Source: Candidatus Omnitrophota bacterium
GTDB lineage: Bacteria; Omnitrophota; Gorgyraeia; JABMRN01; RBG-13-46-9
Length of the DNA stretch: 64,000 nt
Reading direction: 5' to 3'
Assembly: GCA_016782425.1 (NCBI GenBank)
Contig: JADHYN010000002.1
Coordinates: 40,807 to 104,806, forward strand
A program made the translations under genes and the position numbers. Below, in pieces: positions 38,357-54,623 of this stretch. Each line of letters opens with the position of its first letter. The first letter of the stretch is position 1. The notes under the pieces were generated by a model that was not told the DNA's origin, did not search any database, and worked only from the letters and a program-made list of their open reading frames with translations.

Positions 38357-39447
38357 GTGCCTATTTTACTCATATATTTATCTATCAAGAAATATTGTAG
38401 GATTTTTGAAAAAACCTGGGCATTACACTCAGGCATAACAAAACCGTAATTTTCCAGAATTTCAGTTGTATATCGAGAGTCCAGTTTTGCATTGGAATTC
38501 AAAGCAAAAATGCTGTTTTGCAATATCGCTCTTTGCGCGGGTGTACACTTGTTTATATTAAAGTTATTCAAGGAAACTATTTTTGGTTTTTTGAATTCCA
38601 TTATTTCGCTGGCTGATTCTATGATATCTGACATCGAAACCTGTCCTTCAGGAAATGGGTGATAATTTTTATTCTTTTCTTTCGTATGCAAAGAAATGAT
38701 ATATATCCCAAATGCAACACTATCTACCGGAACAAGGTTTATATGGGTATCCAAAAGTGGCAACGCATCGAAAATACCCACTTTACAAAGATCGATAAAA
38801 TTATATATATTTCTAGATTGAAGAATTTTGCCGGTTGTCGATTCTCCAATAACTAAAGACGGCCTGAATACATCTATCCAAAGCCCGCCTTTTCGATATT
38901 TCGCAACCAATTTTTCTCCCTCAAATTTGCTTTGTTCATAAGAGGTATTAAATTTCTGTCCTACGTCTAAATCTTTTTCATTAAATCTTTTCCTGCAATC
39001 GCCACAGACATAGGCGGTACTAAAATAGTTTATTTTCTTGAGTTTTCCTTTTTTCTGATATTCACAAGCCAGATCCAAGACATTCCTTGTTCCGCCCACG
39101 TTCACCTTTTTTATTTCTTTGAGCGGCCAATTTACATCAGTAACTGCAGCACTGTGAAATATTTCATCTATTTCGTTCTTTAGTAAATCTCTTGATTTTT
39201 TATTAAAACTCAGATTTTTTTTTGTTATATCACCTTCAAGGATTATTAAATTATCGAGTTTACCGGATATATTTTTATTGCCCCAAAAATTGAGAACACC
39301 TATTACTCTATCTCTGGCTTTTTTACCATTTTTACTTCTGGAAAGTACATAGACTTTGTGTCCCTTTTGTAAAAAAATTTTTACCAGATAGGAACCGATC
39401 AACCCTGTCGCGCCGGTTAGAAATATGGTATTCTTATTTTCGCCCAT
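38353..39447 (-). CDS. thioester-reductase-type SDR (NAD_binding_4 / fatty acyl reductase-like)
   Basis: TGATGLIGSYL Rossmann motif; catalytic YEQSK (YxxxK); 364 aa. Confidence 0.75.
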   Translation of the reverse strand: MGENKNTIFLTGATGLIGSYLVKIFLQKGHKVYVLSRSKNGKKARDRVIGVLNFWGNKNISGKLDNLIILEGDITKKNLSFNKKSRDLLKNEIDEIFHSAAVTDVNWPLKEIKKVNVGGTRNVLDLACEYQKKGKLKKINYFSTAYVCGDCRKRFNEKDLDVGQKFNTSYEQSKFEGEKLVAKYRKGGLWIDVFRPSLVIGESTTGKILQSRNIYNFIDLCKVGIFDALPLLDTHINLVPVDSVAFGIYIISLHTKEKNKNYHPFPEGQVSMSDIIESASEIMEFKKPKIVSLNNFNINKCTPAQRAILQNSIFALNSNAKLDSRYTTEILENYGFVMPECNAQVFSKILQYFLIDKYMSKIGT

Positions 39448-40682
39448 TATTGGTCTTCTCTAATTTTGTTAGCGGGTTTTCCAAAAGCAGTGCAGGCATT
39501 ATTGCCTCCAAAAGCAAAACTGTTATTTAAAACAGTGTTCAATTTCACTTTTCTGGCTTTATTCGGAACGCAATCTATATCGCATTCGGGATCCGGAGTT
39601 TCAAAATTTATTGTTGGCGGAATTATTCCTTCCTTTATGGCTAAACAGCAAGATAGGGCTTCAATAGCGCTTGCTGCTCCCATTGTATGGCCTAACATTG
39701 ATTTTATTGAACTTACAGGAGGAAGTTTCTTGGAGCTATTGCCAAAAACCTCTTTAATTGCCTGACATTCCGTTTTATCATTCGGGATTGTGCCGGTTCC
39801 GTGGGCGCTTATGTAATCAACATCATTTGGTTTAATGCCTGCATTTTTCATTGTTTTTATCATAACCTTTTTGATTCCTTTAAGACTGGGAATGGTCATA
39901 TGGTAGGCATCGCAACTTAATCCATATCCTAAAATTTCAGCGTAAATATTTGCACCTCTTTTCCTTGCAGATTCTAATTCTTCCAGGATTAAAACCGCTG
40001 CTCCTTCGCCAACCATCATTCCTTTTCTATCTTTATCAAACGGCTTGCATAAATTTGGCGACATAGCATACAAACGACCGAAACCCGTAAATCCTATTCT
40101 TGAAAATGGGTCTGATCCGCCTATCAAAGCGCAATTAACCATCTTTTCTCTGATTAAATCATAGCCGTATCCTACGGAATAATTTCCTGCTGCACAGGCC
40201 GTGGGTATTACAACACTCATACCTTTTAATTTAAAAAATCGATTAACATTATTTGATATTGCGCTGCTTTGATATTTTGAAACAGTGATAGCCCATACAT
40301 CGTCTTCACCTAATGCCGCCCAATGCCTATCAATCTCTTCAATCATACCTCCTTCACCCATCGTCGTTCCGAATATTACAGCAATTTTATTTTTGGATAA
40401 TTGAGATGTCTTTAATCCGGTGTCGTTTAATGCCTCCTTTGTCGCCGCCACAGCAAATTGGGATGCCCGTCCAAAATCTCGCAGTCTACTTTTTGGAATA
40501 AAATTTATTGGATCAAAATTTTTTATCTCACCGCCCCTCTGAATATCATAATTTGAGATATCAAACGCAGTTACCTTGCTTATTCCTGATTTTCCATCTA
40601 TAAGATTTTTCCAGAATTCATCTTTACCAATTCCAATGGATGACACAATTCCTAATCCGGTTACAACAACACGTCTTTTCAT
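39447..40682 (-). CDS. beta-ketoacyl-ACP synthase (FabF/KS-alpha type, catalytically complete)
   Basis: Cys in PTACAAGN, His in SAHGTGT, His in GHTMGAAS. Confidence 0.9.
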   Translation of the reverse strand: MKRRVVVTGLGIVSSIGIGKDEFWKNLIDGKSGISKVTAFDISNYDIQRGGEIKNFDPINFIPKSRLRDFGRASQFAVAATKEALNDTGLKTSQLSKNKIAVIFGTTMGEGGMIEEIDRHWAALGEDDVWAITVSKYQSSAISNNVNRFFKLKGMSVVIPTACAAGNYSVGYGYDLIREKMVNCALIGGSDPFSRIGFTGFGRLYAMSPNLCKPFDKDRKGMMVGEGAAVLILEELESARKRGANIYAEILGYGLSCDAYHMTIPSLKGIKKVMIKTMKNAGIKPNDVDYISAHGTGTIPNDKTECQAIKEVFGNSSKKLPPVSSIKSMLGHTMGAASAIEALSCCLAIKEGIIPPTINFETPDPECDIDCVPNKARKVKLNTVLNNSFAFGGNNACTAFGKPANKIREDQ

Positions 40683-41104
40683 TGTATTGCCTTAAAAGTA
40701 AATTCTCCTTTTGCGACAGTTTTACCGTTAACCGACGCTATTGCATTAATAATCCCGGCATCTTTTGTAATTTTTACCGGTGTAACTTCAACCCTTAACG
40801 TATCACCTGGAACAACAGGTTGAAGAAAACGCGTTTTTATACTTCCTAAATAATATGTTGGGTTTTCTTTTTTATCTTCATCATAAAATAACATCGCTCC
40901 TGTCTGGGCCATTACTTCAGAAATAAGAACGCCCGGCATAATTTTTCTTTCCGGGAAGTGCCCTTGGAAAAAGGGTTCATTTACAGAGACATTTTTTATG
41001 CCGATGGCGCGTTTCCCTTTCTCAAATTCTATAACTCTATCTACCATCAAGAAAGGATAACGCTGATGTAAAGCTTTTTTAATTGTATTTAATCCTAATT
41101 CCAT
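40679..41104 (-). CDS. 3-hydroxyacyl-ACP dehydratase (FabZ-like hot-dog)
   Basis: HFPERKIMPGVLISEVMAQTG motif. Confidence 0.85.
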   Translation of the reverse strand: MELGLNTIKKALHQRYPFLMVDRVIEFEKGKRAIGIKNVSVNEPFFQGHFPERKIMPGVLISEVMAQTGAMLFYDEDKKENPTYYLGSIKTRFLQPVVPGDTLRVEVTPVKITKDAGIINAIASVNGKTVAKGEFTFKAIQ

Positions 41105-41125
41105 AATAAATTCCTATTTAATAAA

Positions 41126-41380
41126 TTATTTATTTACGAGATCTTTTACAAGTTCTAATGTTTGCTTTAAATTCGTTAACTTCATTAGGTTTTCTTCGGG
41201 AATTTTGATTTTATATTTTTTCTCAAGAGATGCCAGGATCTCTAAAGCCATCATTGAGTCCATTCCTAAATCTTCTACAAAATTTGCTTCGGGAGTAATT
41301 TTTTCTGGTTCTACCTCGGCAATTTCTGAAATAACGGATTTAATCTCTTTTTCCAAATTCTGCATATTTATTTTAGGCAT
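41126..41380 (-). CDS. acyl carrier protein
   Basis: 84 aa; LGMDSMMALEI phosphopantetheine-attachment Ser. Confidence 0.85.
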   Translation of the reverse strand: MPKINMQNLEKEIKSVISEIAEVEPEKITPEANFVEDLGMDSMMALEILASLEKKYKIKIPEENLMKLTNLKQTLELVKDLVNK

Positions 41381-41393
41381 GTATCGCTACCTC

Positions 41394-42137
41394 CTACATG
41401 GCCAAGCCGCCATCTATGGTTATTACCTGTCCTGTTATATATTTTGCTTCATCCGAAGCAAGAAATGCCGCAACTTTGGCGACCTCATCTGCTTTACCAA
41501 ATCTATTCAAAGGAATCCTTTTTAATAATTCTTTTCTATAATTTTCTTTTAAACCCTGCACCATATCTGTGTCAATATAACCCGGTGCAATTGCGTTCAC
41601 TCTTACATTGTAAGGTCCAACTTCTTTTGCCAATGCCTTTGTAAGGCCTATAATGCCGGCTTTACTGGCCGAATAATTTACTTGCTTTGGCATGCCTTTT
41701 AAACCAGCCACCGATGTTAGATTTATAATATTTCCGCTTTTCTGCTTCATAAAAGTGACTATAGCCGCTCGTACAAGATTAAACGCTCCTGATAAGTTTG
41801 TAGATATAACATCTTCCCAATCCTGTTCCTCCATGAGCATAAGCGCTTTATCGCGCAGTATGCCGGCATTGTTTACTATTATATCAAGTCTTCCGAAATG
41901 GCTTTTGACGCCCTCAACCATAACTTTTATGGAATCGTATTCTTTTACGTCCTGTCGAAACGTGAGCACCTTACCACCTTTTTCTTCGATTTCTTTTTTT
42001 ACTTTGAGGGCTTTGTCTTCGCTTTTTAGAAAATTAAATGCTACATTTACCCCTTGTCTGGCAAATTCCCGCACAATAGCCTCACCTATGCCGCGCGAAC
42101 CACCTGTTACTATCGCAACCTTATCTTTTAAAAGCAT
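41394..42137 (-). CDS. 3-oxoacyl-ACP reductase (FabG-like SDR)
   Basis: TGGSRGIG, NNAG, YSASKAG. Confidence 0.9.
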   Translation of the reverse strand: MLLKDKVAIVTGGSRGIGEAIVREFARQGVNVAFNFLKSEDKALKVKKEIEEKGGKVLTFRQDVKEYDSIKVMVEGVKSHFGRLDIIVNNAGILRDKALMLMEEQDWEDVISTNLSGAFNLVRAAIVTFMKQKSGNIINLTSVAGLKGMPKQVNYSASKAGIIGLTKALAKEVGPYNVRVNAIAPGYIDTDMVQGLKENYRKELLKRIPLNRFGKADEVAKVAAFLASDEAKYITGQVITIDGGLAM

Positions 42138-43379
42138 TTATAGTTTCCCTATCGTCAGACTCGAATTGTTCCCTGTAGGACTAAAAGAATTTACTAAAAT
42201 ATTATTGATCTCCTGTTCCCTTGTCTTATTAGGTACACAGTCAAGATCGCATCTTCTATCCAGTTTTTTGTAATTTACCGTTGGAGGAAGGAAGTTCTCC
42301 TCCATAACCCCTATGCTAGCTCCCAGGTTCATCGCGCCTGATGCGGAAAAACTATCGCCAATCATCGACTTGATAGAGCTTATCGGGATCTTTTTCGCCT
42401 TTTTTCCAAATACATTTTTAACGGCTCTTGTTTCCATAACGTCGCAGTCAAGTGTGGAATTCGCACTTGCGCTTATATAAGCGATATCGCCTTCCTTGAG
42501 ACCCATATCTTCCAAGCAATATTTAATTGACTCCGTAGCGCCTTTTGCTTTCGGGCTATATATGTTTTTGCTCTCGGGGTCAAACGAAGTGCCATAGCCG
42601 AGAACTTCCGCGTAGACTTTAGCGTCTCTTGCGCGAGCGTGCTCTAGCTCTTCCAGAACAACTATACAAGCACCTTCACCCATTACTATGCCGTTTCGCC
42701 GCTTATCAAAGGGGCAATCGATTTCCTCTTTCCCCGGTCTGGAGCCGGCTAAGTGCCCGATCTTGTGAAATCCTTTATATGTCTGTTCGCAAAGCTCTTC
42801 AACGCCGCCTGTTAAAACAACTTTATATTCATATAGGTTTATCATGTTCATCGCATAATAGATAGCGTCTAAACTTGAACAAAACCCTGTAGCGATGGTG
42901 CTATTAAATCCTTGTATATTAAACTTAATTGAAATATGGCTTGCGGGTGAATTTATAACGGTATTTGGGAAAAGCGCCGGATTTACAGCCCTTGGTCCTT
43001 CACGAAGTGCCTCTTTATCAAATTCGCTTATTGAGCGTACGCTACCCATTGTAGAACCAAGGGATACGCCACATATATCCGTATCCTTCTCAGGAACAGG
43101 ACAAGGTAATTTTGCATCTTCCAAGGCCAATTTTGAGGCACACAAAACCAATAATGTTGTCCTATCTAAATTACGTAATCCTTTTTGGCCCAAAATCGTC
43201 TTTGGGTTAAAATTCGATATCTCACCGGCAAGTTTTGTCCTAAGGTTAGAAGTGTCAAAAAGTGTAACCGGCTTTACTCCTGAAGCGCCTTTTTTCAATG
43301 CACTCCAGAATTCATGCTTCCCAATCCCATTGGGCGCCAGAACTCCTATGCCGGTTATAACTATTCTTTTTTTCATCAT
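42138..43379 (-). CDS. ketosynthase-like partner protein (chain-length-factor-like; both catalytic His residues replaced)
   Basis: KS fold. Cys is kept (ATGFCSS), but the His positions read SASANST and SMIGDSFSASG. Start moved to ATGATG at 43379 (MMKKRIVITGIG), removing a 37-aa extension. Confidence 0.8.
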   Translation of the reverse strand: MMKKRIVITGIGVLAPNGIGKHEFWSALKKGASGVKPVTLFDTSNLRTKLAGEISNFNPKTILGQKGLRNLDRTTLLVLCASKLALEDAKLPCPVPEKDTDICGVSLGSTMGSVRSISEFDKEALREGPRAVNPALFPNTVINSPASHISIKFNIQGFNSTIATGFCSSLDAIYYAMNMINLYEYKVVLTGGVEELCEQTYKGFHKIGHLAGSRPGKEEIDCPFDKRRNGIVMGEGACIVVLEELEHARARDAKVYAEVLGYGTSFDPESKNIYSPKAKGATESIKYCLEDMGLKEGDIAYISASANSTLDCDVMETRAVKNVFGKKAKKIPISSIKSMIGDSFSASGAMNLGASIGVMEENFLPPTVNYKKLDRRCDLDCVPNKTREQEINNILVNSFSPTGNNSSLTIGKL

Positions 43380-43413
43380 TAAAAATCCTTCAAAAAAAAT
43401 ATACCTATGACAA

Positions 43414-43617
43414 TCAGCGATTGTTTGAGTTCTCTTTACCCGCAATCCATTTATCAATAGTTGACTTCTTGAATCGCCACGCAGAGCCAACCTTGAAACC
43501 GGGTACTTTGCCTTCTTGAGCGTGCTTGTATATCGTAACCTTCTTCATTCTCAAGTACTTAGCAAGCTCATCGATCGTCATTAGGCTGAATTTGCTTTTG
43601 TCGGTCATTTTAGACAC
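43414..43617 (-). CDS. small excisionase-family (MerR-superfamily) HTH DNA-binding protein
   Basis: MTIDELAKYLRMKKVTIYKHAQEGKVPGFKVGSAWRFKKSTIDKWI; 67 aa. Confidence 0.7.
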   Translation of the reverse strand: MSKMTDKSKFSLMTIDELAKYLRMKKVTIYKHAQEGKVPGFKVGSAWRFKKSTIDKWIAGKENSNNR

Positions 43618-43800: not shown

Positions 43801-44682
43801 TTACCTTAATATATAGCAATTACCCCCTTTTGATTTCGCTTCATATAGTGCTTCGTCAGCGCGTTTTAGCAGGTAATTCATTTCCACCTTCTTTATATCT
43901 TTGACCTCTATTACACCCATGCTAATTGAAGTATTAATCTTGTTCTTCTCAAATATAATCGGCTTTTTCATGGCCTTTTGCAGCCTTTCCGCCGCAACAA
44001 GGGCCTCTTCCTTTCTTTTATGTGAGAGCATAACCATGAATTCATCCCCGCCAAAGCGGCCTATCAGGTCTATTTTACGCGTTTGGCGTTTTAGTCTTTC
44101 TGCAAATTCGCGTATGACCTTATCGCCTGCGAGATGCCCCAAGGTATCGTTTATTTCTTTAAAATTATCTATATCCATTAAAATAAATGTTAACGGTATA
44201 TTATTACGAAGTGATTTTTCAAGCTCTTCTTCTGCCTTTTTTAAAAAATAACCTTTATTAAAAGTACCTGTCATCCAGTCAAATGTCGCTTCGTCCTTTA
44301 ATTTATCGTGCTTTTCCTTTAATTCTAGAAAATTCTTTATTCGGGCGGTGAGTTCATCGGGAGATACCGGTTTTACGAGATAATCAACCGCTCCGCCGTG
44401 GAGCGCCCTTAACTTATCGTCTATCTTAATGCTTGCAGTAAGAAATATGACGGGAATATATCTTTCTCCGAAATAAGTCCTTATCTTATCCAGGACCTCA
44501 AAGCCCGTCATCCCCGGCATAGAAACATCCAGAATAATGAGATTCGGTGATTCCTTCTTAAAAATCTCGATTGCCTCCATGCCATTTTTTGCTGCTACAA
44601 CCTCATAACCTTCCGATAATAGTATTGTCTTGAGAACTTCTAAAATGCTTGAATCATCATCGCAAACTAGAATCTTGATCAT
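43801..44682 (-). CDS. response regulator-diguanylate cyclase (REC-GGDEF)
   Basis: ILVCDDD, LDVSMPGMTG, and GGDEF in RFGGDEFMV with an RxxD I-site (RKID) five residues upstream. Confidence 0.9.
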   Translation of the reverse strand: MIKILVCDDDSSILEVLKTILLSEGYEVVAAKNGMEAIEIFKKESPNLIILDVSMPGMTGFEVLDKIRTYFGERYIPVIFLTASIKIDDKLRALHGGAVDYLVKPVSPDELTARIKNFLELKEKHDKLKDEATFDWMTGTFNKGYFLKKAEEELEKSLRNNIPLTFILMDIDNFKEINDTLGHLAGDKVIREFAERLKRQTRKIDLIGRFGGDEFMVMLSHKRKEEALVAAERLQKAMKKPIIFEKNKINTSISMGVIEVKDIKKVEMNYLLKRADEALYEAKSKGGNCYILR

Positions 44683-44759: not shown

Positions 44760-45803
44760 TCATACCTGCAAATCGTATTCAACGCTCATTAAATCTTCTT
44801 CGGCTTCCTTTGTTTTTCCCATTTTCTCCAATATCTGAGCCCGTTGTCCCCGTAAATACGGCATATACGGATTATCCTTATCTTTACTAATTATACCCGT
44901 AATATACAGATACGCATCTTCATACCTTTTTTGGTCTTTAAGCAATATTGCACGATAATACTCAACCCGGCGAATAACAGATAAACTACGGGAATTCATA
45001 ATAACGTCCTTATATAGCTTTTCACTCTTTTTATAATAGCCGAGAAGATGGTATGTTCGGGCTTTTGTCATCTTGAATTCATAGATATCTTTCATTTCGG
45101 GCTTGATCTTATTAAGATATCTTTCATTAATTATATATACAATGGGGCGAATTAACCTCAATGGTATAAATCTTAAAAAATCAAACCTCACCCCTTCTTT
45201 CGTTATTACATATGTAGGTAAATTGCAGTATACGGCCAAATAAGAAGGGTCAGCCCATCTTTTTTCGTATTCTGCTCTCAGCTTAACCCTCTTATTATCG
45301 GCAATAATGCTTAAATCTTCTTTTATGTCGGACTGAGTGGCAAAATTGCCGTTTTTATTCACAAGATCAAGCTTGTAAGCCGGGTCTACAATTATCCATT
45401 TCTTATCAGGCGCGAGAACCTCTGCTATAGAATGCGGTGAGGCACCTGATGCTGATTGAAGAAATAGAAGCCTTGAGGTTATTCCGATACTCCTGGCCAA
45501 TTGCATAAATACACGTGCCTGCTGGTCACACCATCCAATACCGTAAATCAGCTTCTCGATAGCGCAAGTAGCCAGCCTATTATGATAGCCGTGGATGGAA
45601 AGGACATTTTCATGGACGAAATCCCTGATAGCAACCACCTTATCGTAAAAATTTTCCGATTTATCGGTAAGGCTTCTGGTAATAACGTAAGACATAATCT
45701 TGTTGTACCTTTTTTCAGAAATTGAGGAAAAAAATAGGAAATAAGAAGGGGCGGTTAGTAAAATAATAATTATTATAAGAAAAATAAAACCCTTTTTTTT
45801 CAT
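44760..45803 (-). CDS. membrane-anchored transglutaminase-like protein with C-terminal TPR repeats
   Basis: GWCDQQARVF (Cys), PHSIAEV (His), IIVDP (Asp) core and TPR-like YY..A repeats. Start set at ATG 45803 (MKKKGFIFLIII) with AGGAG 7 nt upstream, rather than 45950. Confidence 0.6.
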   Translation of the reverse strand: MKKKGFIFLIIIIILLTAPSYFLFFSSISEKRYNKIMSYVITRSLTDKSENFYDKVVAIRDFVHENVLSIHGYHNRLATCAIEKLIYGIGWCDQQARVFMQLARSIGITSRLLFLQSASGASPHSIAEVLAPDKKWIIVDPAYKLDLVNKNGNFATQSDIKEDLSIIADNKRVKLRAEYEKRWADPSYLAVYCNLPTYVITKEGVRFDFLRFIPLRLIRPIVYIINERYLNKIKPEMKDIYEFKMTKARTYHLLGYYKKSEKLYKDVIMNSRSLSVIRRVEYYRAILLKDQKRYEDAYLYITGIISKDKDNPYMPYLRGQRAQILEKMGKTKEAEEDLMSVEYDLQV

Positions 45804-45985
45804 AGGATTACTCCTGTATGGGAGATATTGTAGCATTTTTTGGAGTAAATTCCACTTTTTTATTATTACATATATCCTTTCGCCGCACGTTCGGACCGGT
45901 TTCCTGTCTAAATAAGCCAATTCAACAAAGTAATTTAAAAAATCCACCATTTAGGGTATAATCTCAATAACATAAGGATTTTCGC

Positions 45986-48727
45986 ATGGACCGAAATCTA
46001 CCGGAAAAATTTAAAAAGATCTCATCCGAATATAGCAATCAAATTGCAATCAAGTATAAAAAGGATAATAAATGGGCTACTATTACCTACGGTGATTTTA
46101 ATAACACCCTTGAATCGCTATGCAACTTTTTATTAACAAAAAATATTAAAAAGGATGATAAGATCGCTATCCTCCTGAAAAACAGGCCTGAATGGCCGCT
46201 TGTATTTTTCGCATCGCTTTCCATAGGGGCTGCCTGTGTACCTATGAATCCCGAATTAACCCAGAAGGAAATCCAAAATATACTTAATAATTCTGAGTCA
46301 AAAATCGTCTTTACGGACGACGGGTTTTTACGTCTAAAAAAGGAAATCCTGCAAAACTGCCCTTCTGTAAAAGAAGTTATTTCCGTGGATTCAGAATCAG
46401 TTTGGCGACCGACGCGGTCGCCAAATGTTAGTAGCGACCGCCATGCCGATCCGGGTGATACAGCATGCATTCTATACACCTCGGGTACCACTGATGAGCC
46501 AAAAGGCGTTATGCTTTCGCACAAGAATTTGCTTTCGAACTGCGAATCGCTTTATAAATTAAACCTGATTACCCGGAAAGACAGCGTAGTTTCCATTCTT
46601 CCGCTCCACCATACCTATCCGCTAACCATAACGATGCTTCTCCCGCTTTTATACGGCGGCATGATAGTCTATCCCGGTACGCTGCGCGGAGAAGCCGTTT
46701 TACAAGCATTAAAAGAGACCAATCCTACTGTTTTTGTTGCCGTGCCGCAGATTTTTTATACGTTTCATCAAAAGATTGTGGATCTACTGAAGAATATCCC
46801 CTTTCCCCTAAAGCTCTTGCTTAATGCTACAACCAATCTTTTATATCGGATTCGGCGTAAAACACGCATCAATTTATCACGCTACCTATTTTTCAGTCTC
46901 CAAAAAAAATTCGGAAAATCGATGCGTTTATTTGTAAGCGGGGGCGCGAAGCTCGATGAAAACGTCGAACAGGACCTTTTCAAATTCGGATTTACGATAT
47001 TGGAAGGTTACGGCCTTACGGAAACCTCGCCTGTCTTAGCCTTGAATCCTTTAAAAAATCCAAAAATAGGTTCGGTAGGACTTGCGATACCAGAGGTGGA
47101 ATTAAGAATAATAAATAAGGATGAGAATGGCCTGGGTGAGGTCATAGCGCGCGGCCCGAATATTATGGAAGGATACTACAAAAGAAGTGATTTAACCGCC
47201 GATGTGATAAAAGACGGGTGGTTTTATACGGGTGATTTAGGATTTTTTGATAAAGACGGCTATTTGTTTTTGACCGGGAGGTCGAAGGATATAATTGTAT
47301 TGAGTTCGGGTAAGAATATATATCCGGAAGAAATAGAAGAGGCTTACTCTAAAGACGTGCCTGCAGAGGAAATATGCGTATTCGAAGTGCCGTCTAAAAA
47401 GGGAGCCAAAGAAACGGAAGTCCTATGGGCTGTTATTGTTCCCGATCTTAAATTCTTCAAAAAATACGGAGAGGTGAATTTAAAAAATGTTATAAAAGAA
47501 AGAATTGACAATGTATCGAGATCCTTACCTCCCCACAAAAGGCTTATGGGTTTTTCCATAACGCTTGATGAGCTTCCGCGTACGCTTTTGGGTAAAGTTA
47601 AAAGGTTTGCCGTTAAAGAAATTTACATACCAAAGATACTAGAGGAAGAAAAAACCATACCGGAAAAAGAGGACTTATCCCGGGAAGACCGTGAATTAGT
47701 AAATACCTATTTCGGTAAAAAGATAATAGATTATCTTAAAAAAACGGCCAAAGTTGACAAGGCGATTGTCCCGGCTAATTCGCTGGAACTCGACCTCGGG
47801 ATAGATTCATTAGGCAGAATTGACCTTGCCTTCGGCCTTGAAAAGCTGTTTGGAACGGAAATAGAAGATGAAATTATCGGCCGTTCGTTTACGGTAAAGG
47901 ACTTAATTCTGGGCTGCATGGAATCGCTTTTGCCGAAAGATACCAAAACCAAGCGGGAAGGCAAAAAAGGAATAGATTTTGGGCCTGATTACTGGGTAAA
48001 ACTTCTCCGGGTTCCCCCAAAAAAGGAAAGCCTGGATAAAATTGATTTAAACCCGGGTTTTGGCGCCTGGCTGGGTGGCTTTATTTTCACGTTATTGCAT
48101 TGGTTGGTCTATAAATTGTTTTATAGCCTAAAAGTAGAAGGAAAGGAAAATTTTCCCGAAAGCGGACCATATATATTATACGTGAATCATTCGAGTTACT
48201 TCGACGGGTTCCTTGTTGCGGTGTCTTTGCCTAAATTTCCGAGATTAGAGTTATTTTTTGTAGGCTTCAGGCCGTATTTTACCGTACCCATTATCAGGAA
48301 CCTCGTAAAAATAGGAAGAATCATACCGCTTGACTTCTCCTCGCACCTTTTAGAGGCCTTACGAAGCTCGTATTATGTCGTTAAAAAAGGTAAAAGCCTG
48401 TGTTTATTCCCCGAGGGCTTGCGTACGCTTGACGGAGAGATAAAAGAATTTAAGAAAGGGTTCGGTATACTGGTAAAAGAAACGCAGGCAAAGCTTGTGC
48501 CGGTTGTTCTAGAAGGCGCTTACGAAGCATGGCCGAGGACTTCCAAATTTCCCAGACGCCACCCTATAAAGGTAAAGTTCGGCAAGCCACGGGATCCCGG
48601 AGATATGGAAAGAGAAGGCTATAAAATGGGCGCTAAAGACAGCTATGAAGCTATATGCCTTGCAGCAAGGGATGTGCTGGTAACGCTAAAAGAAACCACA
48701 ACTTATGGAGGCCGAAGGCCAACTTAA
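45986..48727 (+). CDS. tridomain protein: AMP-dependent acyl ligase, carrier (PP-binding) domain, and 1-acylglycerol-3-phosphate-type acyltransferase
   Basis: LYTSGTTDEPKGV, GYGLTETS, and YTGDLG adenylation motifs; LGIDSLGRIDL carrier Ser; NHSSYFD (HX4D) and FPEGLRT acyltransferase motifs. Confidence 0.85.
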   Translation: MDRNLPEKFKKISSEYSNQIAIKYKKDNKWATITYGDFNNTLESLCNFLLTKNIKKDDKIAILLKNRPEWPLVFFASLSIGAACVPMNPELTQKEIQNILNNSESKIVFTDDGFLRLKKEILQNCPSVKEVISVDSESVWRPTRSPNVSSDRHADPGDTACILYTSGTTDEPKGVMLSHKNLLSNCESLYKLNLITRKDSVVSILPLHHTYPLTITMLLPLLYGGMIVYPGTLRGEAVLQALKETNPTVFVAVPQIFYTFHQKIVDLLKNIPFPLKLLLNATTNLLYRIRRKTRINLSRYLFFSLQKKFGKSMRLFVSGGAKLDENVEQDLFKFGFTILEGYGLTETSPVLALNPLKNPKIGSVGLAIPEVELRIINKDENGLGEVIARGPNIMEGYYKRSDLTADVIKDGWFYTGDLGFFDKDGYLFLTGRSKDIIVLSSGKNIYPEEIEEAYSKDVPAEEICVFEVPSKKGAKETEVLWAVIVPDLKFFKKYGEVNLKNVIKERIDNVSRSLPPHKRLMGFSITLDELPRTLLGKVKRFAVKEIYIPKILEEEKTIPEKEDLSREDRELVNTYFGKKIIDYLKKTAKVDKAIVPANSLELDLGIDSLGRIDLAFGLEKLFGTEIEDEIIGRSFTVKDLILGCMESLLPKDTKTKREGKKGIDFGPDYWVKLLRVPPKKESLDKIDLNPGFGAWLGGFIFTLLHWLVYKLFYSLKVEGKENFPESGPYILYVNHSSYFDGFLVAVSLPKFPRLELFFVGFRPYFTVPIIRNLVKIGRIIPLDFSSHLLEALRSSYYVVKKGKSLCLFPEGLRTLDGEIKEFKKGFGILVKETQAKLVPVVLEGAYEAWPRTSKFPRRHPIKVKFGKPRDPGDMEREGYKMGAKDSYEAICLAARDVLVTLKETTTYGGRRPT
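46402..46424. repeat. REP palindrome copy D, in-frame inside the ligase CDS
   Basis: TTGGCGACCGACGCGGTCGCCAA, translated as VWRPTRSPN just upstream of the LYTSGTT motif. Confidence 0.9.
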
Positions 48728-48944
48728 GTTGTATGGCTTAAGTTTACCCCCACACCACTTTCTATACTATGTACAAAAATGGTGATAATGTATTATGATA
48801 GAGACAAAGCCTTTAATGACAAGAAATTGTAATTTTAGAAAGTGGTGGGGGATTAATTCGACAGTTCGGAGATGCATAACGTAGGAGATGGACTTATGAA
48901 AACCATAGATTTTCATAAGTCCAGGTCTCATTAAAGGAGAAAAA

Positions 48945-49742
48945 ATGAAGCTACTTTTGTGGCTTGTTATCTCTATTATTATTTTCTTGGTGGGCATAAG
49001 ATACATCGAAAAGCATAGTATATATTTTCCCATGAAGGAGATGTCTATCACACCCGAAGAAATAGGATTACCTTATGAAGATATTTACTTCGAAACACCC
49101 GATAACAAGAAATTAAACGGATGGTTTGTTCCGCATGATAACGCAAAATTCACAATCCTTTTTGTTCATGGAAATGCCGGAAATATAAGCCATAGATTAG
49201 AGAAAATTCTAATCTTTCATAACCTCGGGCATAATATATTTATCTTTGATTATCGCGGTTATGGAAAAAGCAATGGCTCGCCTTCTGAGGCGGGTCTATA
49301 TAAAGACGCAGAAGCTGCGTATAATTATTTGATAAATGAGCGCAAAATCCCGGAAGATAATATTATTCTTTATGGAGAATCGATTGGCGGAGCTGTTATT
49401 ATTGATCTCGCCAATAAAGTCAAAGTGCGCGCTTTGATCACAGAAGAGGTGTTTACATCGGTCAAGGACATGGCTAAAATCGCGTATCCTTTTCTCCCCT
49501 ACTTTATATTCTCAAGCAGATTTGATTCTATTCCCAAAATAAAAGGAGTAAAATGCCCTAAACTTATGATTCACAGCATAGATGACGAGATTGTGCCGTT
49601 TCGCCTGGGAGAGAAACTATTCAATGCCGCCAATCCACCAAAGACATTTCTTAAAATAAGGGGTTCTCACAACACGGCTTTTTTGGATTCGGAAGAGCAG
49701 TTTAAAGAAGGAATAAAAACTTTTTTAAACGGCCTCAAGTAA
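48945..49742 (+). CDS. alpha/beta hydrolase with N-terminal membrane anchor
   Basis: HGNAGN oxyanion region, GESIGG nucleophile elbow, and C-terminal D...H pattern. AAAGGAG SD. Confidence 0.8.
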   Translation: MKLLLWLVISIIIFLVGIRYIEKHSIYFPMKEMSITPEEIGLPYEDIYFETPDNKKLNGWFVPHDNAKFTILFVHGNAGNISHRLEKILIFHNLGHNIFIFDYRGYGKSNGSPSEAGLYKDAEAAYNYLINERKIPEDNIILYGESIGGAVIIDLANKVKVRALITEEVFTSVKDMAKIAYPFLPYFIFSSRFDSIPKIKGVKCPKLMIHSIDDEIVPFRLGEKLFNAANPPKTFLKIRGSHNTAFLDSEEQFKEGIKTFLNGLK

Positions 49743-49761: not shown

Positions 49762-50343
49762 TTATTTATTAATCACGATAGTTCCGAGGGAAGTACCTTC
49801 TTTTTCTTTCTTTATCTCTTCTATTCTTCTATTTAATTCCTCTATTTTTGCCTCGGCTCCGGCTTTTTCATTATTCAGCGCCTCTATCTCTGTCTTGATA
49901 TCATCGAAGGCCTTATTTGCTAACTCAAGCGGTTTTAAGAGGCTTGTCTTTTCCTTTTGATGTTGCGTGACGCTGGCGCTCAATCTGTTTATCCGGTCGT
50001 CTTTTTGCTTTATTGAATCGGCAAACTTTTGGCTTTTATTGGTCTCGGCGGTTAATTGTCCGGTAAGGCTTTTTACGTTTGCCCTGGAAATTTCAAGCTG
50101 TCGTTCGGCGTTCTTTTTTGATTCCTCGATTTCCTCCAAGGTCTCGGTAAGCGCCATCTTATCCTGCATGAGCTCTTCGAAGCTTGCCTGGAGCGCTTCC
50201 TTTTCTTCATTTATATTTTTCTTCGTAATAAATAAAAAAGTCGCAACTAAAATGGAAATCACGCATAGCGCGATTAATGCCGCCAGAGTAGTCTTATCGC
50301 GATTATTAATGATGTAATTTTTTATTTTATTTATCAGGCTCAT
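49762..50343 (-). CDS. membrane-anchored coiled-coil protein
   Basis: One N-terminal TM helix, then heptad-rich Glu/Lys/Leu sequence. 17-nt overlap with the secretin 3' end. Confidence 0.45.
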   Translation of the reverse strand: MSLINKIKNYIINNRDKTTLAALIALCVISILVATFLFITKKNINEEKEALQASFEELMQDKMALTETLEEIEESKKNAERQLEISRANVKSLTGQLTAETNKSQKFADSIKQKDDRINRLSASVTQHQKEKTSLLKPLELANKAFDDIKTEIEALNNEKAGAEAKIEELNRRIEEIKKEKEGTSLGTIVINK

Positions 50344-52288
50344 AGATTATATATAAACTGAAATCTTTCTTATGCTCCCTGATCGCCTGTGGAAATACCG
50401 GAAATGGAGCTGCTTTCTCTACGGCAGCTATTGCTATATCGTTAAAGAAAAAGTTTGTTGATTCCTTTACCCTGGGTTTGGAGGCGAGATTCCCTCCTGA
50501 GTATAAAGAAAATTTTATTCTGACTTTGTCACCCCTTAATATATGCGAATCTTTTTTGGGTACATAAATGTTATCCATTATTTTATTCTTTATGGTATAG
50601 AAATACTCCGCCGCACTTGAGATTTCTGCTTCCGGGGCTCTCTTTTCCCTTGCTTCTTTGATTTTTTTAGCCTTTTTCATCGGAATATCTTCTCTCAGAT
50701 AACCCGTTGATACTTCTATCGGTTTTCTTCTATCAAAAGTTGGTTTCTCCTGCATTGTAAATTTTCCTTTGCCATCAGGATACGAAGGAGGCGTCTTTAG
50801 ATAATCTGTCTCGCCCGAAATAATGTGCGGGGTAAGAAATATTACAAGCTCCTTCTTTGTCACCGAATCCTCCGTCTTAGAGAAAATCTGACCGACAAGG
50901 GGAATATCCCCCAAGAAAGGTACTTTGTTGGTTGTGCTCTTACGCTCATCTTTTATCAAACCGGCAATAATTATCGTTATCCCGTCTTTTACCATGACGC
51001 TTGTCTCAGCGTGGGTTGTGTCGACAATAGGAACTGTTGTAGACGGATCGCCGTATGTATAACTGCTTGTTGAGGAACTTACCTCCGGTCTTATTTTCAT
51101 GGAAACAAAACCATCGCGATTTATGGTTGGAGTAACGTATAGTTTTACCCCTATATCCAGGAAGTTAAGTTCCGTCGCTACTGTTGTAGTAGACGTTCCC
51201 TGCGTTACCGTATTCGTGGCATACGGCTCGCTTGAACCAACAAGTATCTTGGCTTCCTCATTATTTAAAACCGTGATCCTTGGACTTGATAAAATATTGG
51301 CATCGCCGACTTTTTTTAAGGCCTGGACCATTGCGGCATAATCGCCCTCGCCAAAGGCCCCTATCATAATTTCACCGCCCGGAACAAGCCCGCCGGCGGA
51401 AGCTAATTTGAATTGACTTTTTATCCCTATATCTTTTGATAAGACTTTTTGGAATTCATTGCTCACCACTTCCCAATCAATGCCCAATTTGTATTCATCG
51501 CTTAAGTTTATTTCGAGTATTTTCGCCTCGATCAGAACCTGTTGCACTTTGTCATCCAGAGCGCTTATTATTTCTTCTATTTCATCCATTCTTTCTTCTA
51601 AATCTGTGATAATGATTTTGTTTGTTCTCTCATCGATCTGCACCATTCCCACGCCCTTGGTGAGATTCTCCCCGATTTTATCCTTTATATCCGCTGTATT
51701 GGCATAATTCAGCTCAAATATCTTTGTAGTCGTGGGTTTATCTATTCTTTTTACCAGTTCGACCGCTTGCAAAACAGCCTGTGGCGCATCTATAATAACA
51801 ATGGTATTTGACGCTTCATCTACTATAACCTTCCCTATTTTTGTTTTTATCTGATTTAACGCCTTGTTTACCTCGGCGGGTTTTGCGTATTTGAGCTGTA
51901 TTATTTTTGCTTCTTTTTTATCGGCGTATTTCCTCCCGTACAGCGCTTCGTAATCTCTCTCGGTCATGACATATACGATATCGCCCTTTTTGTCGCTTGC
52001 GAGGTTATTTGCCAATAGAATTATCTCGAAGGCCTCCTTAACGTCCACATCTTTCAGAAACATGGTAACCCTGCCGCGGACATTGCTCCCCACGACAAGA
52101 TTCATTTTGCCTTTCGAGGCCAGTGTTTTTAAGACCTCAACGATATCCATGCCTTTTAAATCCAATGATATGGTGTCTTCGCTATCAATGGCACTCAGGC
52201 TCTCACCCGGGTGAAACTGTGCAAACGCGAAGGTGGAAGCAAAAAATACTGCCGACGCAAAGGCTATATATACAAAATATTTTTTCAT
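50327..52288 (-). CDS. secretin (GspD/PilQ family) with C-terminal TonB-C-like extension
   Basis: Signal peptide MKKYFVYIAFASAVFFASTFAFA and secretin core ...PFLGDIPLVGQIFS...ELVIFLTPHII, plus a 160-aa tail. Start ATG 52288 has GGAG 8 nt upstream; the alternative is 52306 (ATGA overlap). Confidence 0.85.
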   Translation of the reverse strand: MKKYFVYIAFASAVFFASTFAFAQFHPGESLSAIDSEDTISLDLKGMDIVEVLKTLASKGKMNLVVGSNVRGRVTMFLKDVDVKEAFEIILLANNLASDKKGDIVYVMTERDYEALYGRKYADKKEAKIIQLKYAKPAEVNKALNQIKTKIGKVIVDEASNTIVIIDAPQAVLQAVELVKRIDKPTTTKIFELNYANTADIKDKIGENLTKGVGMVQIDERTNKIIITDLEERMDEIEEIISALDDKVQQVLIEAKILEINLSDEYKLGIDWEVVSNEFQKVLSKDIGIKSQFKLASAGGLVPGGEIMIGAFGEGDYAAMVQALKKVGDANILSSPRITVLNNEEAKILVGSSEPYATNTVTQGTSTTTVATELNFLDIGVKLYVTPTINRDGFVSMKIRPEVSSSTSSYTYGDPSTTVPIVDTTHAETSVMVKDGITIIIAGLIKDERKSTTNKVPFLGDIPLVGQIFSKTEDSVTKKELVIFLTPHIISGETDYLKTPPSYPDGKGKFTMQEKPTFDRRKPIEVSTGYLREDIPMKKAKKIKEAREKRAPEAEISSAAEYFYTIKNKIMDNIYVPKKDSHILRGDKVRIKFSLYSGGNLASKPRVKESTNFFFNDIAIAAVEKAAPFPVFPQAIREHKKDFSLYIIYEPDK

Positions 52289-52302
52289 GTCTTTACTCCG
52301 TT

Positions 52303-52929
52303 TCATAAAACAAGTATTATTTGTCTTCCCTTATAGCTCAACACTACTTTCCCTCCGCCGATCTCGAGAATATCGACACCACTGAAAGACTGGCCTTTAT
52401 ACAGGTAATGGGTTTTTTGCGCTTCTTTATCTTCTATTATGGCCTGCGGTTCGTCACCGGCTATAATTCCCACCAGGTTGAATCTCTTGGTTATATCTAT
52501 CTCGGGAACCTGAGATTCTTCTTCTTTAATAAACGGGGCGCTGAAGAGATTCTTTCCTTTTATCTGCCTCGAATAGGTTGAATAATCCTTTACGTGTGGC
52601 GATACTGGTCTTTCCGGCGGTGCAAGATCTGTGCCAACGCGGCCGGTCTCTCCGGGAGGAACAATGGAACCGATGTCCTTATACGGACTGTACAAAAAAC
52701 TGTCGAGAAAATATATGGAAGCTATTATCAAAACAGCTACCAGGATCCTGTTTATGGGCTTCAGGAATACAGGTTTGAATATTTTATTCTTGAGGAAAAT
52801 CTTTTTGACGGCTTCGGTAAACAATGATTTTTGCGCCACGGCCGGTGTCGCCTCGCCCGTGTCGCTTCTCTTCTTATATTTTCCTTTTATAAGGTGGAGT
52901 AGCCGGTCTTCGGGCGAATCTGGTCTCAT
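52303..52929 (-). CDS. GspC/PilP/GspB-like secretin-associated inner-membrane protein
   Basis: One TM helix and the C-terminal pattern NLVGIIAGDEPQAIIED...GQSFSGVDILEIGGGKVVLSY. Sits between the ExeA-like ATPase and the secretin. Confidence 0.5.
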   Translation of the reverse strand: MRPDSPEDRLLHLIKGKYKKRSDTGEATPAVAQKSLFTEAVKKIFLKNKIFKPVFLKPINRILVAVLIIASIYFLDSFLYSPYKDIGSIVPPGETGRVGTDLAPPERPVSPHVKDYSTYSRQIKGKNLFSAPFIKEEESQVPEIDITKRFNLVGIIAGDEPQAIIEDKEAQKTHYLYKGQSFSGVDILEIGGGKVVLSYKGRQIILVL

Positions 52930-53745
52930 CTATATATCCTCTTTTTTTATGATTTCGAAAATCATCTGTTCGTCAACAATGTCTTTTTGTTTTATTATTA
53001 ACTCTTCAAGCGAATTATGGCACAAAACAGCGATTTTTCTCGGATAGCCCTGGCTGTATTCAAATATACGTTTTACGCTTTCCGGGGTAAATAAGTGCCT
53101 GTCCCTGGAAAGCCCCGCCTGTTTTAATCTGAAATTTATCATCTCTTTCGTTTCGTTCATATCGAGCGGATTTATTATGTACTTTAATGCAATCCTGTCA
53201 TAGAAATTTTTTACCCGCTTTATTTTGGGTAAGAGTTCCATCTGGCTCATTATGACAAGCTGCAGAAGTTTATATTCGTTCGTTTCATAGTTGAGAAGCG
53301 TTCTTAATACTTCTAAAAAATTAGAATGGAGCTTCTGCCCTTCATCGATCAAGAGAACTATTGTCTTATGTTCATCGATACCTTTTTTAAACAGGTATTT
53401 TTCTATCTCTTCCTTGTAATCGTGCGTCGTCCTTGTATCGGGCGTTATCCCGAATATCTTGACAAGTGTTTCTAAAAGCTGAAATTCGGAATTGTAGTCC
53501 GGATCAAGTATCATGTGGAAGACAAAATCGTTGTCGTTCGAAAATTCCTGCAGAAGGGCCCGTGAAAGTGTTGTCTTGCCGGTACCGACATCCCCAAGGA
53601 TTAAGCTTAAACCCCTCCTAAGGCGGATTCCTATTTCAAGCCTTTTCAGGACGGAATTATGGGCGGAAGAGCGGTATAAAAATGCCGGATCCGGGCTTGT
53701 GGAAAACGGTTCTTTTTTTAAATTCAGAACTTCGTAATAACCCAT
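52930..53745 (-). CDS. ExeA/GspA/MshM-like AAA ATPase
   Basis: Walker A GDVGTGKTTL and Walker B VLLIDEGQ; 271 aa. Confidence 0.8.
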   Translation of the reverse strand: MGYYEVLNLKKEPFSTSPDPAFLYRSSAHNSVLKRLEIGIRLRRGLSLILGDVGTGKTTLSRALLQEFSNDNDFVFHMILDPDYNSEFQLLETLVKIFGITPDTRTTHDYKEEIEKYLFKKGIDEHKTIVLLIDEGQKLHSNFLEVLRTLLNYETNEYKLLQLVIMSQMELLPKIKRVKNFYDRIALKYIINPLDMNETKEMINFRLKQAGLSRDRHLFTPESVKRIFEYSQGYPRKIAVLCHNSLEELIIKQKDIVDEQMIFEIIKKEDI

Positions 53746-53760
53746 ATTTATAGGCCTTTT

Positions 53761-53982
53761 TTAGAGCAAGTCTTTGATCTTGCGTAACGATTTTTTCTCT
53801 TTTCGATAATTTCGTATTCTGTTTAGCCTTTGAATCGTAGAGTCGTCAAAATACCTAAAATTTGTCTCCGGGCTTCTTCCGGTCTCTTTTATCAATCCGA
53901 GCTTCAAGTAATACTTTACTGTATAAATAGATAAGCCAGAAAACCGCGCGATATCCTTTATTAAATATAGTTTAGAAGTCAT
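53761..53982 (-). CDS. small MerR-family HTH protein
   Basis: YLIKDIARFSGLSIYTVKYYLKLGLI; 73 aa. Confidence 0.7.
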   Translation of the reverse strand: MTSKLYLIKDIARFSGLSIYTVKYYLKLGLIKETGRSPETNFRYFDDSTIQRLNRIRNYRKEKKSLRKIKDLL

Positions 53983-53985
53983 ATA

Positions 53986-54029
53986 TACTCTCTAAGTAGA
54001 GAGTAATGCTGTGCTCTCTACGTAGAGAG
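53986..54029. promoter_or_regulatory. two palindromic operator candidates of form CTCTCTA-N2-TAGAGAG
   Basis: TACTCTCTA-AG-TAGAGAGTA at 53986-54005 and CTCTCTA-CG-TAGAGAG at 54014-54029, with centres 26 bp apart. Confidence 0.6.
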
Positions 54030-54055
54030 TATACCATATCTTTTTGATTTGTCAA
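54028..54055 (-). promoter_or_regulatory. sigma70-type promoter TTGACA-N16-TATACT inside the secretion cluster
   Basis: Read on the minus strand. The -10 hexamer overlaps the distal palindrome. Confidence 0.6.
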
Positions 54056-54085
54056 GGGTTGGGACGTTTTTGGCTTTTGGGGTGG

Positions 54086-54619
54086 TTAGCCGAGGATGAT
54101 CTTGCCTATAAGGAATATGCCTTTAAGCCTATGTGAAGAGCTCAATCGTGAGGTTATTGTGAATTGTCGCACCCTCAGGTGCTCGGTGGATGCCTCTATT
54201 TCGTATAAAAACCGCGATAGTTCATCAAGGCTACCGCCTGTTGTAATCTCGAAGAGTATTTCTTTATAATTGCCTAATTTTCTTGAAGCCCTCGGCCGTA
54301 TATTAACTATATGGCAGGCGCTTTTCTTCGAAACATTCTCTATTTCCCTCAAGGCCTTTGCCTGTTCTTCTTCCTCGTTTTTACTTATCTCTATAACACC
54401 GTGGTATTTAGCGTATTCTTCCTCCAGCGATTGGTACATGTTGAGAAGTTTTGTATTTTTGTTTAATTGAACGATCTTTGATACTAATTGGGCATTGAGC
54501 GTTTTCCAGCGTCTGAGGACAGGCTCTATAATCAAGCTATACAGAATAGCTACCGTTGCCAGGGTTATGCAAATTGCTAATAGCGTTCGTTCGTTTTTCC
54601 CCAGATTTCTTATAAACAT
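54086..54619 (-). CDS. PilO/GspM-like bitopic assembly protein
   Basis: N-terminal TM helix, then coiled coil, then a small C-terminal domain. Lies directly after the PilM-PilN gene. Confidence 0.5.
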   Translation of the reverse strand: MFIRNLGKNERTLLAICITLATVAILYSLIIEPVLRRWKTLNAQLVSKIVQLNKNTKLLNMYQSLEEEYAKYHGVIEISKNEEEEQAKALREIENVSKKSACHIVNIRPRASRKLGNYKEILFEITTGGSLDELSRFLYEIEASTEHLRVRQFTITSRLSSSHRLKGIFLIGKIILG

Positions 54620-54623
54620 GGTT

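Follow-up and report, generated by a model that had tools for sequence, protein, structure and literature searches.

Aas of Escherichia coli makes acyl-ACP (acyl carrier protein) on the enzyme and then acylates lysophospholipid delivered by LplT, and the aas and lplT genes lie in one operon or are fused (PMC11416262). The myxobacterial ether-lipid enzyme ElbD has, according to the passages on it in a review, the domain order FAR1-like, ACS (acyl-CoA synthetase), ACP and AGPAT; the same passages give its ACS and ACP activities as shown in vitro and its FAR and acyltransferase (AT) activities as not shown, and describe ElbD as purifying as a soluble protein (PMC9131029). Here we analyse a gene related to both, which starts at position 45986 of a 64,000-nucleotide stretch of DNA (the window) from a Candidatus Omnitrophota bacterium (GenBank assembly GCA_016782425.1, contig JADHYN010000002.1, positions 40,807 to 104,806 of the forward strand). 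Its 913-aa product joins an adenylating acyl ligase, a carrier domain and a PlsC-type AT, and we refer to proteins of this build as tridomain proteins.

Relatives of ElbD have been recorded outside the myxobacteria. In the review's passages on ElbD such homologues are almost all without FAR and come with no lipid data (Lorenzen et al. 2014 as cited in PMC9131029), and these FAR-less proteins have exactly the architecture of the 913-aa protein; the function of ElbC is there described as unknown. A split elbD, with the reductase separate from an A-ACP-AT protein, is reported in Poribacteria and Acidobacteria (bioRxiv 10.64898/2026.06.23.733905). A Black Sea study scored 93 of 267 Omnitrophota metagenome-assembled genomes (MAGs) with ElbD homologues, which places the phylum second by number of MAGs with such homologues, and found no ether lipids in Pontiella, which has ElbD homologues (PMC11868695). 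The ligase-ACP-AT architecture is hence already on record as 'ElbD-like without FAR', at least in those passages of the review (PMC9131029), and Omnitrophota matches have already been counted as ElbD homologues (PMC11868695). The 913-aa protein belongs to a large, already noticed family, and the ketosynthase (KS)/reductase operon that lies near its gene in the window is not a conserved neighbour.

Judged by sequence comparison, we favour, with some reserve, the view that the 913-aa protein is a self-contained Aas-like acyl-lipid synthetase for membrane lipid repair, remodelling or salvage. The useful outcomes of the work are a corrected comparison with ElbD, the decoupling of the tridomain gene from the neighbouring operon, a hydrolase/permease cassette, and a caution about ElbD as a lipid marker.

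Domain organization of the 913-aa protein

The first-pass annotation of the window had described one polypeptide with a ligase, a PP-binding domain and a PlsC-type AT, and Pfam recognises all of these parts (Table 1). The AMP-binding domain is found at E 1.6e-79 and the acyltransferase PF01553 at E 1e-20; the PP-binding domain passes its cut-off (22.9 bits, cut-off 20.8), and AMP-binding_C lies slightly under its own (E 1.5e-4, 23.0 bits, cut-off 24.5). The attachment residue of the carrier is Ser608 (codon 47807-47809) in the motif GIDSLGR (residues 604-610, within DLGIDSLGR). In the AT, motif I is NHSSYFD (residues 734-740, N734-H735-x4-D740) and motif III is FPEG (F808-P809-E810-G811); motif II reads GRIIPLDF, with no Arg after the acidic residue. 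The protein has AMP-binding, PP-binding (with the conserved Ser) and PF01553 in this order and is within the ~800-950 aa size range of the architecture.

A deposited NCBI protein from a Candidatus Omnitrophota MAG is 100% identical to the 913-aa protein. More than 100 full-length homologues share its architecture at 43-70% identity, nearly all of them ~900 aa long, and those with a named source are from Omnitrophota. A search with residues 560-913 returned 282 clusters (50% identity) at E<=1e-30; among the 150 matches listed for this segment, most are ~870-940 aa in length and are matched at their C-terminus. We aligned 102 full-length homologues (43-70% identity), and also a 20-sequence subset. 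In the alignment of 102, D607, S608, H735, D740, P809 and E810 are invariant, as are the ligase P-loop residues and Lys537, while L609, F808 and G811 reach 90% conservation or more. All three parts of the protein are real and under selection, and the first description of them is thereby borne out.

The ligase has its best solved relatives among acyl-, oxalyl- and malonyl-CoA ligases (E 1e-47 to 1e-40); solved fatty acyl-AMP ligases (FAAL) and the acyl-ACP synthetase AasS match it at about 1e-25, which is weaker. The carrier segment matches many solved ACPs, with a best E of 5e-5 (phmmer, query residues 560-913), and the AT segment matches Thermotoga maritima PlsC (5kym, E 6.7e-10), the nearest solved acyltransferase.

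The AlphaFold2 model, built on the 102-sequence alignment, has a mean pLDDT of 85.4. In it the ligase is followed by helices over residues 566-648, where the carrier segment lies, then by a long hydrophobic helix (692-713) and the AT fold. A helical insertion of ~45 aa lies in the ligase N-domain at about residues 262-306. Helix 692-713 is modelled at a pLDDT of about 88-95 and its sequence is hydrophobic; it likely anchors the protein to the membrane. Among the 50 Foldseek matches listed for the full-length model there are only ligases and proteins with an adenylation-peptidyl carrier (A-PCP) arrangement. The fits of lowest rmsd include thioester-forming or CoA-bound ligases, for example luciferase in its second catalytic conformation (4g37, rmsd 3.7), and the A-PCP didomain of McyG aligned across 696 columns. 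As the listed matches covered only the ligase and A-PCP part, the AT fold was assessed by sequence search.

Comparison with Aas and LplT-Aas fusions

E. coli Aas (b2836) is homologous to the 913-aa protein in both enzymatic parts, with 27% identity over 430 aa in the ligase (E 3e-36) and 25% over 136 aa in the AT (E 2e-11). The two proteins match as two permuted pieces: Aas is built AT-then-ligase and has no carrier domain, using free holo-ACP, whereas the 913-aa protein is ligase-carrier-AT with its PP-binding domain in cis. This is as the first-pass annotation had it, and agrees with the published account of Aas (PMC11416262). The expected chemistry is also alike, free fatty acid being passed through a carrier thioester to a lipid ester, and an upstream permease of the major facilitator superfamily (MFS) is paired with a number of tridomain relatives of the protein (12 of 67 loci have an abutting MFS), although not one that is LplT-like by sequence. 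The tridomain family would be a natural all-in-one Aas with the carrier built in and the order permuted, which may be handy for studying carrier-mediated acylation of lysolipids.

The classical LplT-Aas fusions (PRK08633/PRK06814), represented here by a Gastranaerophilaceae protein (L016), are as similar to the 913-aa protein as ElbD-like proteins are. The fusion shares 33% identity in the ligase, compared with 31-35% for the ElbD-like proteins, and 32% in the AT, compared with 23-31%. It groups weakly with the 913-aa protein in both of our neighbour-joining (NJ) trees, one of the ligase and one of the AT. The order in the fusion is MFS-AT-ligase, unlike the tridomain order, and it has no carrier domain. 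Against the NCBIfam model for such fusions the 913-aa protein scores 274, far from the cut-off of 1221.

Motif II of the AT gives a further point of comparison. Aas has FVPLDP where the 913-aa protein and its relatives have IPLD[FP]. The PlsC of T. maritima shares the HX4D and FPEG motifs with the 913-aa protein, but is a stand-alone lysophosphatidic acid (LPA) acyltransferase that takes acyl-ACP in trans and has FLDR as motif II; the ElbD-like proteins have VP[IM]ER. The Arg of this motif contacts the phosphate of the acceptor. We take motif II as a hint towards an Aas-like acceptor, no more.

Recurrent gene partners of the tridomain family

To survey neighbours we scanned metagenome contigs with an alignment of the carrier and AT segments only, which gave 67 full-length tridomain loci with flanks. 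An earlier scan of one genome per species, made with the full-length alignment, had picked up ligase motifs and returned mostly generic acyl-CoA ligases and one close relative. Neighbours were analysed by all-against-all clustering and by Pfam on the 122 immediate neighbours, and the results agree. Alpha/beta hydrolases stand beside the tridomain gene in 15 of the 67 loci, on the same strand directly downstream in seven and directly upstream in six. Permeases of the MFS_1/ATG22 type stand beside it in 12 loci, directly upstream on the same strand in 11, and often overlap its start codon. Every other Pfam family among the immediate neighbours occurs at most three times. These figures revise those from the first nine loci (eight long Omnitrophota contigs and L001), in which the permease was counted in six and the hydrolase in four.

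The window itself has an alpha/beta hydrolase after the tridomain gene, as had been noted at the outset, and orthologues of this hydrolase at 45-74% identity abut the tridomain gene in eight further loci. The nine closest hydrolases share an N-terminal transmembrane segment, the HG oxyanion motif, Ser146 (in GESIG), Asp214 and His241, and among solved structures the ABH domain of a MARTX toxin (6imp, E 1.5e-16) is the closest to them. The partner MFS proteins form one orthologous group at 38-67% identity, which at the thresholds applied did not match the MFS portion of the L016 fusion. The analogy of these permeases with LplT is one of gene position only. We know of no earlier description of the hydrolase and MFS cassette in Omnitrophota.

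In one Omnitrophota contig (L085 1-8649) the MFS-tridomain pair is immediately preceded by a giant open reading frame (ORF), with a listed product of 8374 residues that extends beyond the locus.

Proposed function

The chemistry that we propose has three steps and seems to us quite likely in outline, on the homology of the domains: fatty acid to acyl-AMP, to carrier on Ser608, to an ester on a glycerolipid acceptor. The ligase would adenylate a free long-chain fatty acid. The acyl group would then be moved to phosphopantetheine on Ser608 of the built-in carrier, in place of the free holo-ACP of Aas. Finally, the PlsC-type domain, through His735 and Asp740, would esterify a free hydroxyl of a glycerolipid with the acyl group; a lysophospholipid is the most likely acceptor. 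Helix 692-713 would meanwhile hold the AT domain at the cytoplasmic face of the membrane. The whole route would be independent of free ACP and CoA. In the cell it would serve to repair or remodel membrane phospholipids, or to salvage lysolipids and free fatty acids. In many relatives the upstream MFS permease could bring in the acceptor or flip it, the part that LplT plays for Aas; lysolipid or free fatty acid could come from the alpha/beta hydrolase, which is related to a toxin domain of the phospholipase type. It is because of these hydrolase and MFS partners that we prefer recycling over de novo or ether-lipid synthesis.

Several observations weigh against this proposal. About 60% of the 67 loci have neither a hydrolase nor an MFS partner, and the window has the hydrolase but no MFS of the partner type. 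The partner MFS was considered as an LplT orthologue and rejected, with no match to the NCBIfam LplT model and a BLASTP E of 0.36 against E. coli LplT. The 913-aa protein does not reach the NCBIfam equivalog cut-offs for Aas (NF005959, 172.9 against 886; NF006386, 274.2 against 1221; NF005291, 216.4 against 1349), and the deep nodes of the NJ trees are weak, at 18-58%. The ligase may form acyl-CoA, given that CoA ligases resemble it more than solved FAAL and AasS enzymes do. The Aas-like function of FAR-less members is a prediction from homology, and in one locus (L104, described below) the tridomain gene lies directly upstream of a KS operon.

The alternative that survives best is de novo phospholipid assembly from scavenged fatty acids, in which the AT would acylate glycerol-3-phosphate or LPA in the manner of PlsB or PlsC as part of primary membrane synthesis. 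The nearest solved AT is indeed an LPA acyltransferase, the built-in ligase and carrier would make such a route independent of FASII and free ACP, and the family is very widespread in Omnitrophota. However, motif II lacks the Arg found in PlsC and in the ElbD-like proteins and resembles that of Aas, the permease and lipase-like hydrolase partners fit recycling better, and genes of the type-II fatty acid synthesis type are present in the same window. We therefore consider de novo assembly unlikely, though it deserves some weight.

Many Omnitrophota are regarded as ultra-small and dependent on a host or prey. An extension of the recycling proposal, which we offer as speculation with little chance of being right, is that the MFS-tridomain-hydrolase cassette serves lipid piracy: foreign lysophospholipids would be imported or flipped, their acyl chains stripped or exchanged, and the lipids, with no need of free ACP or CoA, rebuilt into the membrane of the cell itself. 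In the sublineage represented by the window and L104, the enzyme would further have been recruited to attach the product of the specialised type-II KS operon.

The neighbouring KS/thioester-reductase operon

The tridomain gene had been placed next to a lipid operon, and homologues had been expected to be linked to KS/reductase clusters. The first statement needs correcting: the first operon gene is 2.5 kb away, two unrelated genes separate it from the tridomain gene, and the operon is encoded on the other strand. The operon runs from its HTH_17 gene through KS, FabG, ACP, a FabZ-like (ApeI/ApeP-like) dehydratase, a second KS, a thioester reductase (TR), a GMC oxidoreductase, a nitroreductase and a CrtI-family oxidoreductase, and further on includes a 7TM-GAF histidine kinase, two response regulators, a GAF-HD-GYP protein and another kinase.

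Linkage is not a property of the family. Homologues of the operon genes adjoin the tridomain gene in only two of the 67 loci, namely the window and the syntenic L104, so the tridomain homologues are almost never linked to KS/reductase clusters and L104 is the exception besides the window. Conversely, four other loci (L090, L091, L172 and L173) carry the operon as HTH_17-KS-KR-ACP-DH-KS-TR-(GMC)-nitroreductase-CrtI-like-7TM histidine kinase-response regulators-HD-GYP (KR, ketoreductase; DH, dehydratase), or in reduced or reordered forms, and the tridomain gene was found in the flanks of none of the four. L090 and L173 have nearly the same order (L173 is without the GMC gene), and L172 and L091 have reordered or reduced forms. 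Homologues of the TR number more than 400, and most of those with a named source are from Omnitrophota. As judged from gene order, the neighbouring operon does not include the tridomain gene as a dedicated member; the operon itself looks like a conserved self-contained Omnitrophota unit with its own ACP, seemingly more unusual than the tridomain gene. Its product may perhaps be a reduced chain, acyl or polyketide, with a link to signalling.

The order in L104 is 647-aa ligase-TGase-GGDEF-tridomain-(366 bp)-KS-FabG-ACP-FabZ-KS-CrtI-like-KS, where TGase stands for transglutaminase and all genes are co-directional; TR was not seen up to the contig end. Identities between L104 and the window are 80% for KS, 85% for FabG, 70% for GGDEF and 54% for the tridomain protein. 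L104 is syntenic with the window, because the TGase and GGDEF genes are common to both, and the adjacency of the tridomain and KS genes may therefore be inherited and not selected.

It could nevertheless be that in one sublineage, represented by the window and L104, the tridomain protein loads the specialised acyl product of the KS operon onto a glycerolipid. The two loci keep the tridomain and KS genes within 3 kb in two different arrangements, and the operon dehydratase in related loci matches ApeI/ApeP-like Pfam models; clusters of the aryl-polyene type also carry a ligase and a lysophospholipid-acyltransferase-like gene. Against such loading stand the two loci in 67, and the operon of L173, which is about as close to that of the window as the L104 operon is (KS 78%, FabG 85%, GGDEF 78% identity) yet is free of tridomain genes over the 5.9 kb upstream and the 10 kb downstream of it. 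Tridomain proteins of L081, L085 and L092 are closer to that of the window (63-65%) than is that of L104, yet have no KS cluster. Furthermore, with a TR at its end the window operon should release its product as an aldehyde or an alcohol, compounds on which an adenylating ligase does not act. It also possesses an ACP of its own, and in the window it is divergent from the tridomain gene, with two unrelated genes in between. Because two arrangements keep the genes close, we leave a small chance for a lineage-specific functional link.

Two of these loci hold further lipid-related genes. The co-directional lipid supercluster of L104 (L104 1-18768, Ga0180431_10000715) also includes a GDSL/AlgX-like hydrolase, two methyltransferase fragments and an FMN reductase, and its 647-aa ligase is without an AT domain. 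In L173 a FadL-like outer-membrane fatty-acid channel (Toluene_X, 4465-5751) lies between the response-regulator-GGDEF gene and the HTH_17-KS operon, an arrangement that differs from that of the window.

Comparison with ElbD and ElbD-like proteins

The first-pass annotation had given ElbD as ligase-ACP-reductase-AGPAT and had suggested that the reductase is here supplied by the separate gene at 38353. The first of these is wrong, since the reductase stands at the N-terminus of ElbD and the order is FAR-ACS-ACP-AT in the review's account of it (PMC9131029). The kinship itself holds, and the 913-aa protein is collinear with an ElbD-like protein, but it groups outside the FAR clade and lacks elb-type neighbours.

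Full-length matches at ~30% identity came from several phyla in the scan of one genome per species, and Pfam distinguishes three architectures among them. Proteins of 1470-1594 aa from Pyrinomonadaceae, Bradymonadaceae and Polyangiaceae have FAR (NAD_binding_4 + Sterile)-ligase-PP-AT; Pfam identifies FAR in L002, L006 and L015, and the 1468-aa ORF of L009 matches in length and layout only. Tridomain proteins occur in Acidobacteriaceae, Nitrosomonas, Dehalococcoidia and Bacteroidales, and the classical MFS-AT-ligase fusion of the LplT-Aas type in Gastranaerophilaceae. The ElbD-like protein of L006 (Pyrinomonadaceae, 1470 aa) has the same ligase-carrier-AT order as the 913-aa protein and aligns with it in one collinear segment (30% identity over 919 aa, E 2e-135), which runs through the ligase region with the ~45-aa helical insertion. 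In contrast, the N-terminal FAR/Sterile reductase of ElbD is absent from the 913-aa protein and from more than 100 Omnitrophota homologues, and the helix ahead of the AT, which is hydrophobic in the 913-aa protein, corresponds to a visibly less hydrophobic segment in the ElbD-like protein.

In the NJ trees the FAR-containing proteins form a clade of their own, with bootstrap values of 100% for the ligase and 80% for the AT, and the Omnitrophota family falls outside it. The family joins the Acidobacteriaceae tridomain protein at 83% in the ligase tree, whereas its grouping with the LplT-Aas fusion and with the tridomain protein of Bacteroidales is weak. The ElbD-like genes of L006, L009 and L015 are flanked by a Lar_N gene upstream and a gene for a short-chain dehydrogenase/reductase (SDR) or epimerase downstream. 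No such Lar_N or SDR neighbours were found at the window gene, at the Omnitrophota loci or in the 67-locus neighbour survey. The Lar_N (lactate-racemase N-terminal) genes, possible counterparts of elbC, lie at L006 5840-7438, L009 6725-8323 and L015 6564-8315, with E about 1e-37.

The TR at 38353 was considered as the missing ElbD domain and rejected: it is of the non-ribosomal peptide synthetase (NRPS) type, has no Sterile domain, shares 25% identity over 169 aa with an ElbD-like FAR domain and sits in its own conserved operon with its own ACP.

These results bear on the possibility that the 913-aa protein is an ElbD-type ether-lipid enzyme with its reductase in trans: a fatty acid loaded on its carrier would be reduced by a separate enzyme, for example this TR, and its AT would build an alkyl-glycerol lipid precursor. 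The collinear match to a FAR-ligase-ACP-AT protein, the split elbD genes of Poribacteria and Acidobacteria (bioRxiv 10.64898/2026.06.23.733905), the 93 of 267 Omnitrophota MAGs scored with ElbD homologues (PMC11868695) and a NAD_binding_4 reductase 6.5 kb from the tridomain gene all speak for it. With no FAR domain in the protein, a place outside the FAR clade, no Lar_N or SDR neighbours in any Omnitrophota locus surveyed, an NRPS-type TR whose operon recurs four times without the tridomain gene, a reductase that is adjacent in split elbD but not adjacent in the window, Pontiella homologues without detected ether lipids (PMC11868695) and non-myxobacterial homologues that, in the review's passages on ElbD, are mostly without FAR and without lipid data (PMC9131029), we regard the ether-lipid possibility as very unlikely.

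BLAST matches to ElbD are used in environmental lipid studies as a marker of bacterial capacity for ether lipids. Because they have no reductase domain and no elb-type neighbours, and fall outside the FAR clade, the Omnitrophota matches probably report an Aas-like acyl-lipid enzyme and make a poor ether-lipid marker.

Surroundings of the gene in the window

Table 1. Features of the tridomain gene and its surroundings, in positions of the window (residue numbers refer to the 913-aa protein).
Feature	Position	Strand	Details
Tridomain gene (ligase + carrier + PlsC-type acyltransferase)	45986..48727	+	ATG start, 913 aa, intact ORF
Ligase	46025..47596	+	AMP-binding N-domain residues 14-398, C-domain residues 449-537; Pfam
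Carrier (PP-binding) domain	47720..47878	+	residues 579-631; Pfam
Hydrophobic helix GAWLGGFIFTLLHWLVYKLFYS, putative monotopic membrane anchor ahead of acyltransferase	48059..48124	+	residues 692-713
PlsC/AGPAT-type acyltransferase (AT)	48128..48511	+	residues 715-842; Pfam PF01553
Alpha/beta hydrolase, 265 aa, membrane-anchored	48945-49742	+	Pfam Hydrolase_4/Abhydrolase_1
Transglutaminase/TPR gene	44760-45950	-	upstream of tridomain gene, divergent
Response-regulator-GGDEF gene	43801-44682		between transglutaminase/TPR gene and lipid operon
HTH_17 gene	43414-43617	-	first of operon
ACP of operon	41147-41365	-	missed by ORF lists with a 100 aa limit
Thioester reductase (TR)	38353-39447	-	NAD_binding_4, NRPS-type (TIGR01746), no Sterile domain
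Conserved lipid/signalling operon, whole unit	28450-43617	-	

Upstream, the TGase/TPR ORF as listed starts 35 bp from the start codon of the tridomain gene. A likelier start is an internal Met followed by the hydrophobic segment MKKKGFIFLIIIIILL, ~50 codons in, which would give an intergenic region of ~185 bp. A promoter-like site, TTTAAA-17-TATAAT, lies at 45934-45962.

Downstream, the spacer between the tridomain and hydrolase genes is 217 bp long (48728-48944), unlike in most relatives, where the two genes abut or overlap. It gave no credible Rfam match and no clear (T-run) terminator. Two hairpins can be drawn in it. The first has 21-nt arms (48744-48764 and 48836-48856) that are 86% complementary around a 71-nt loop, and the second has perfect 14-nt arms (48889-48902 and 48910-48923) just before the ribosome-binding site of the hydrolase gene.

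Beyond the hydrolase, at 50327-56054, lies a cluster resembling a type II secretion system (T2SS) or type-IV pilus, with a secretin that has a TonB_C-like tail, an AAA_22 ATPase and PilM/N/O-like genes. Such a cluster adjoins the tridomain-hydrolase pair both in the window, on the opposite strand, and in L086 1-9981, on the same strand and upstream.

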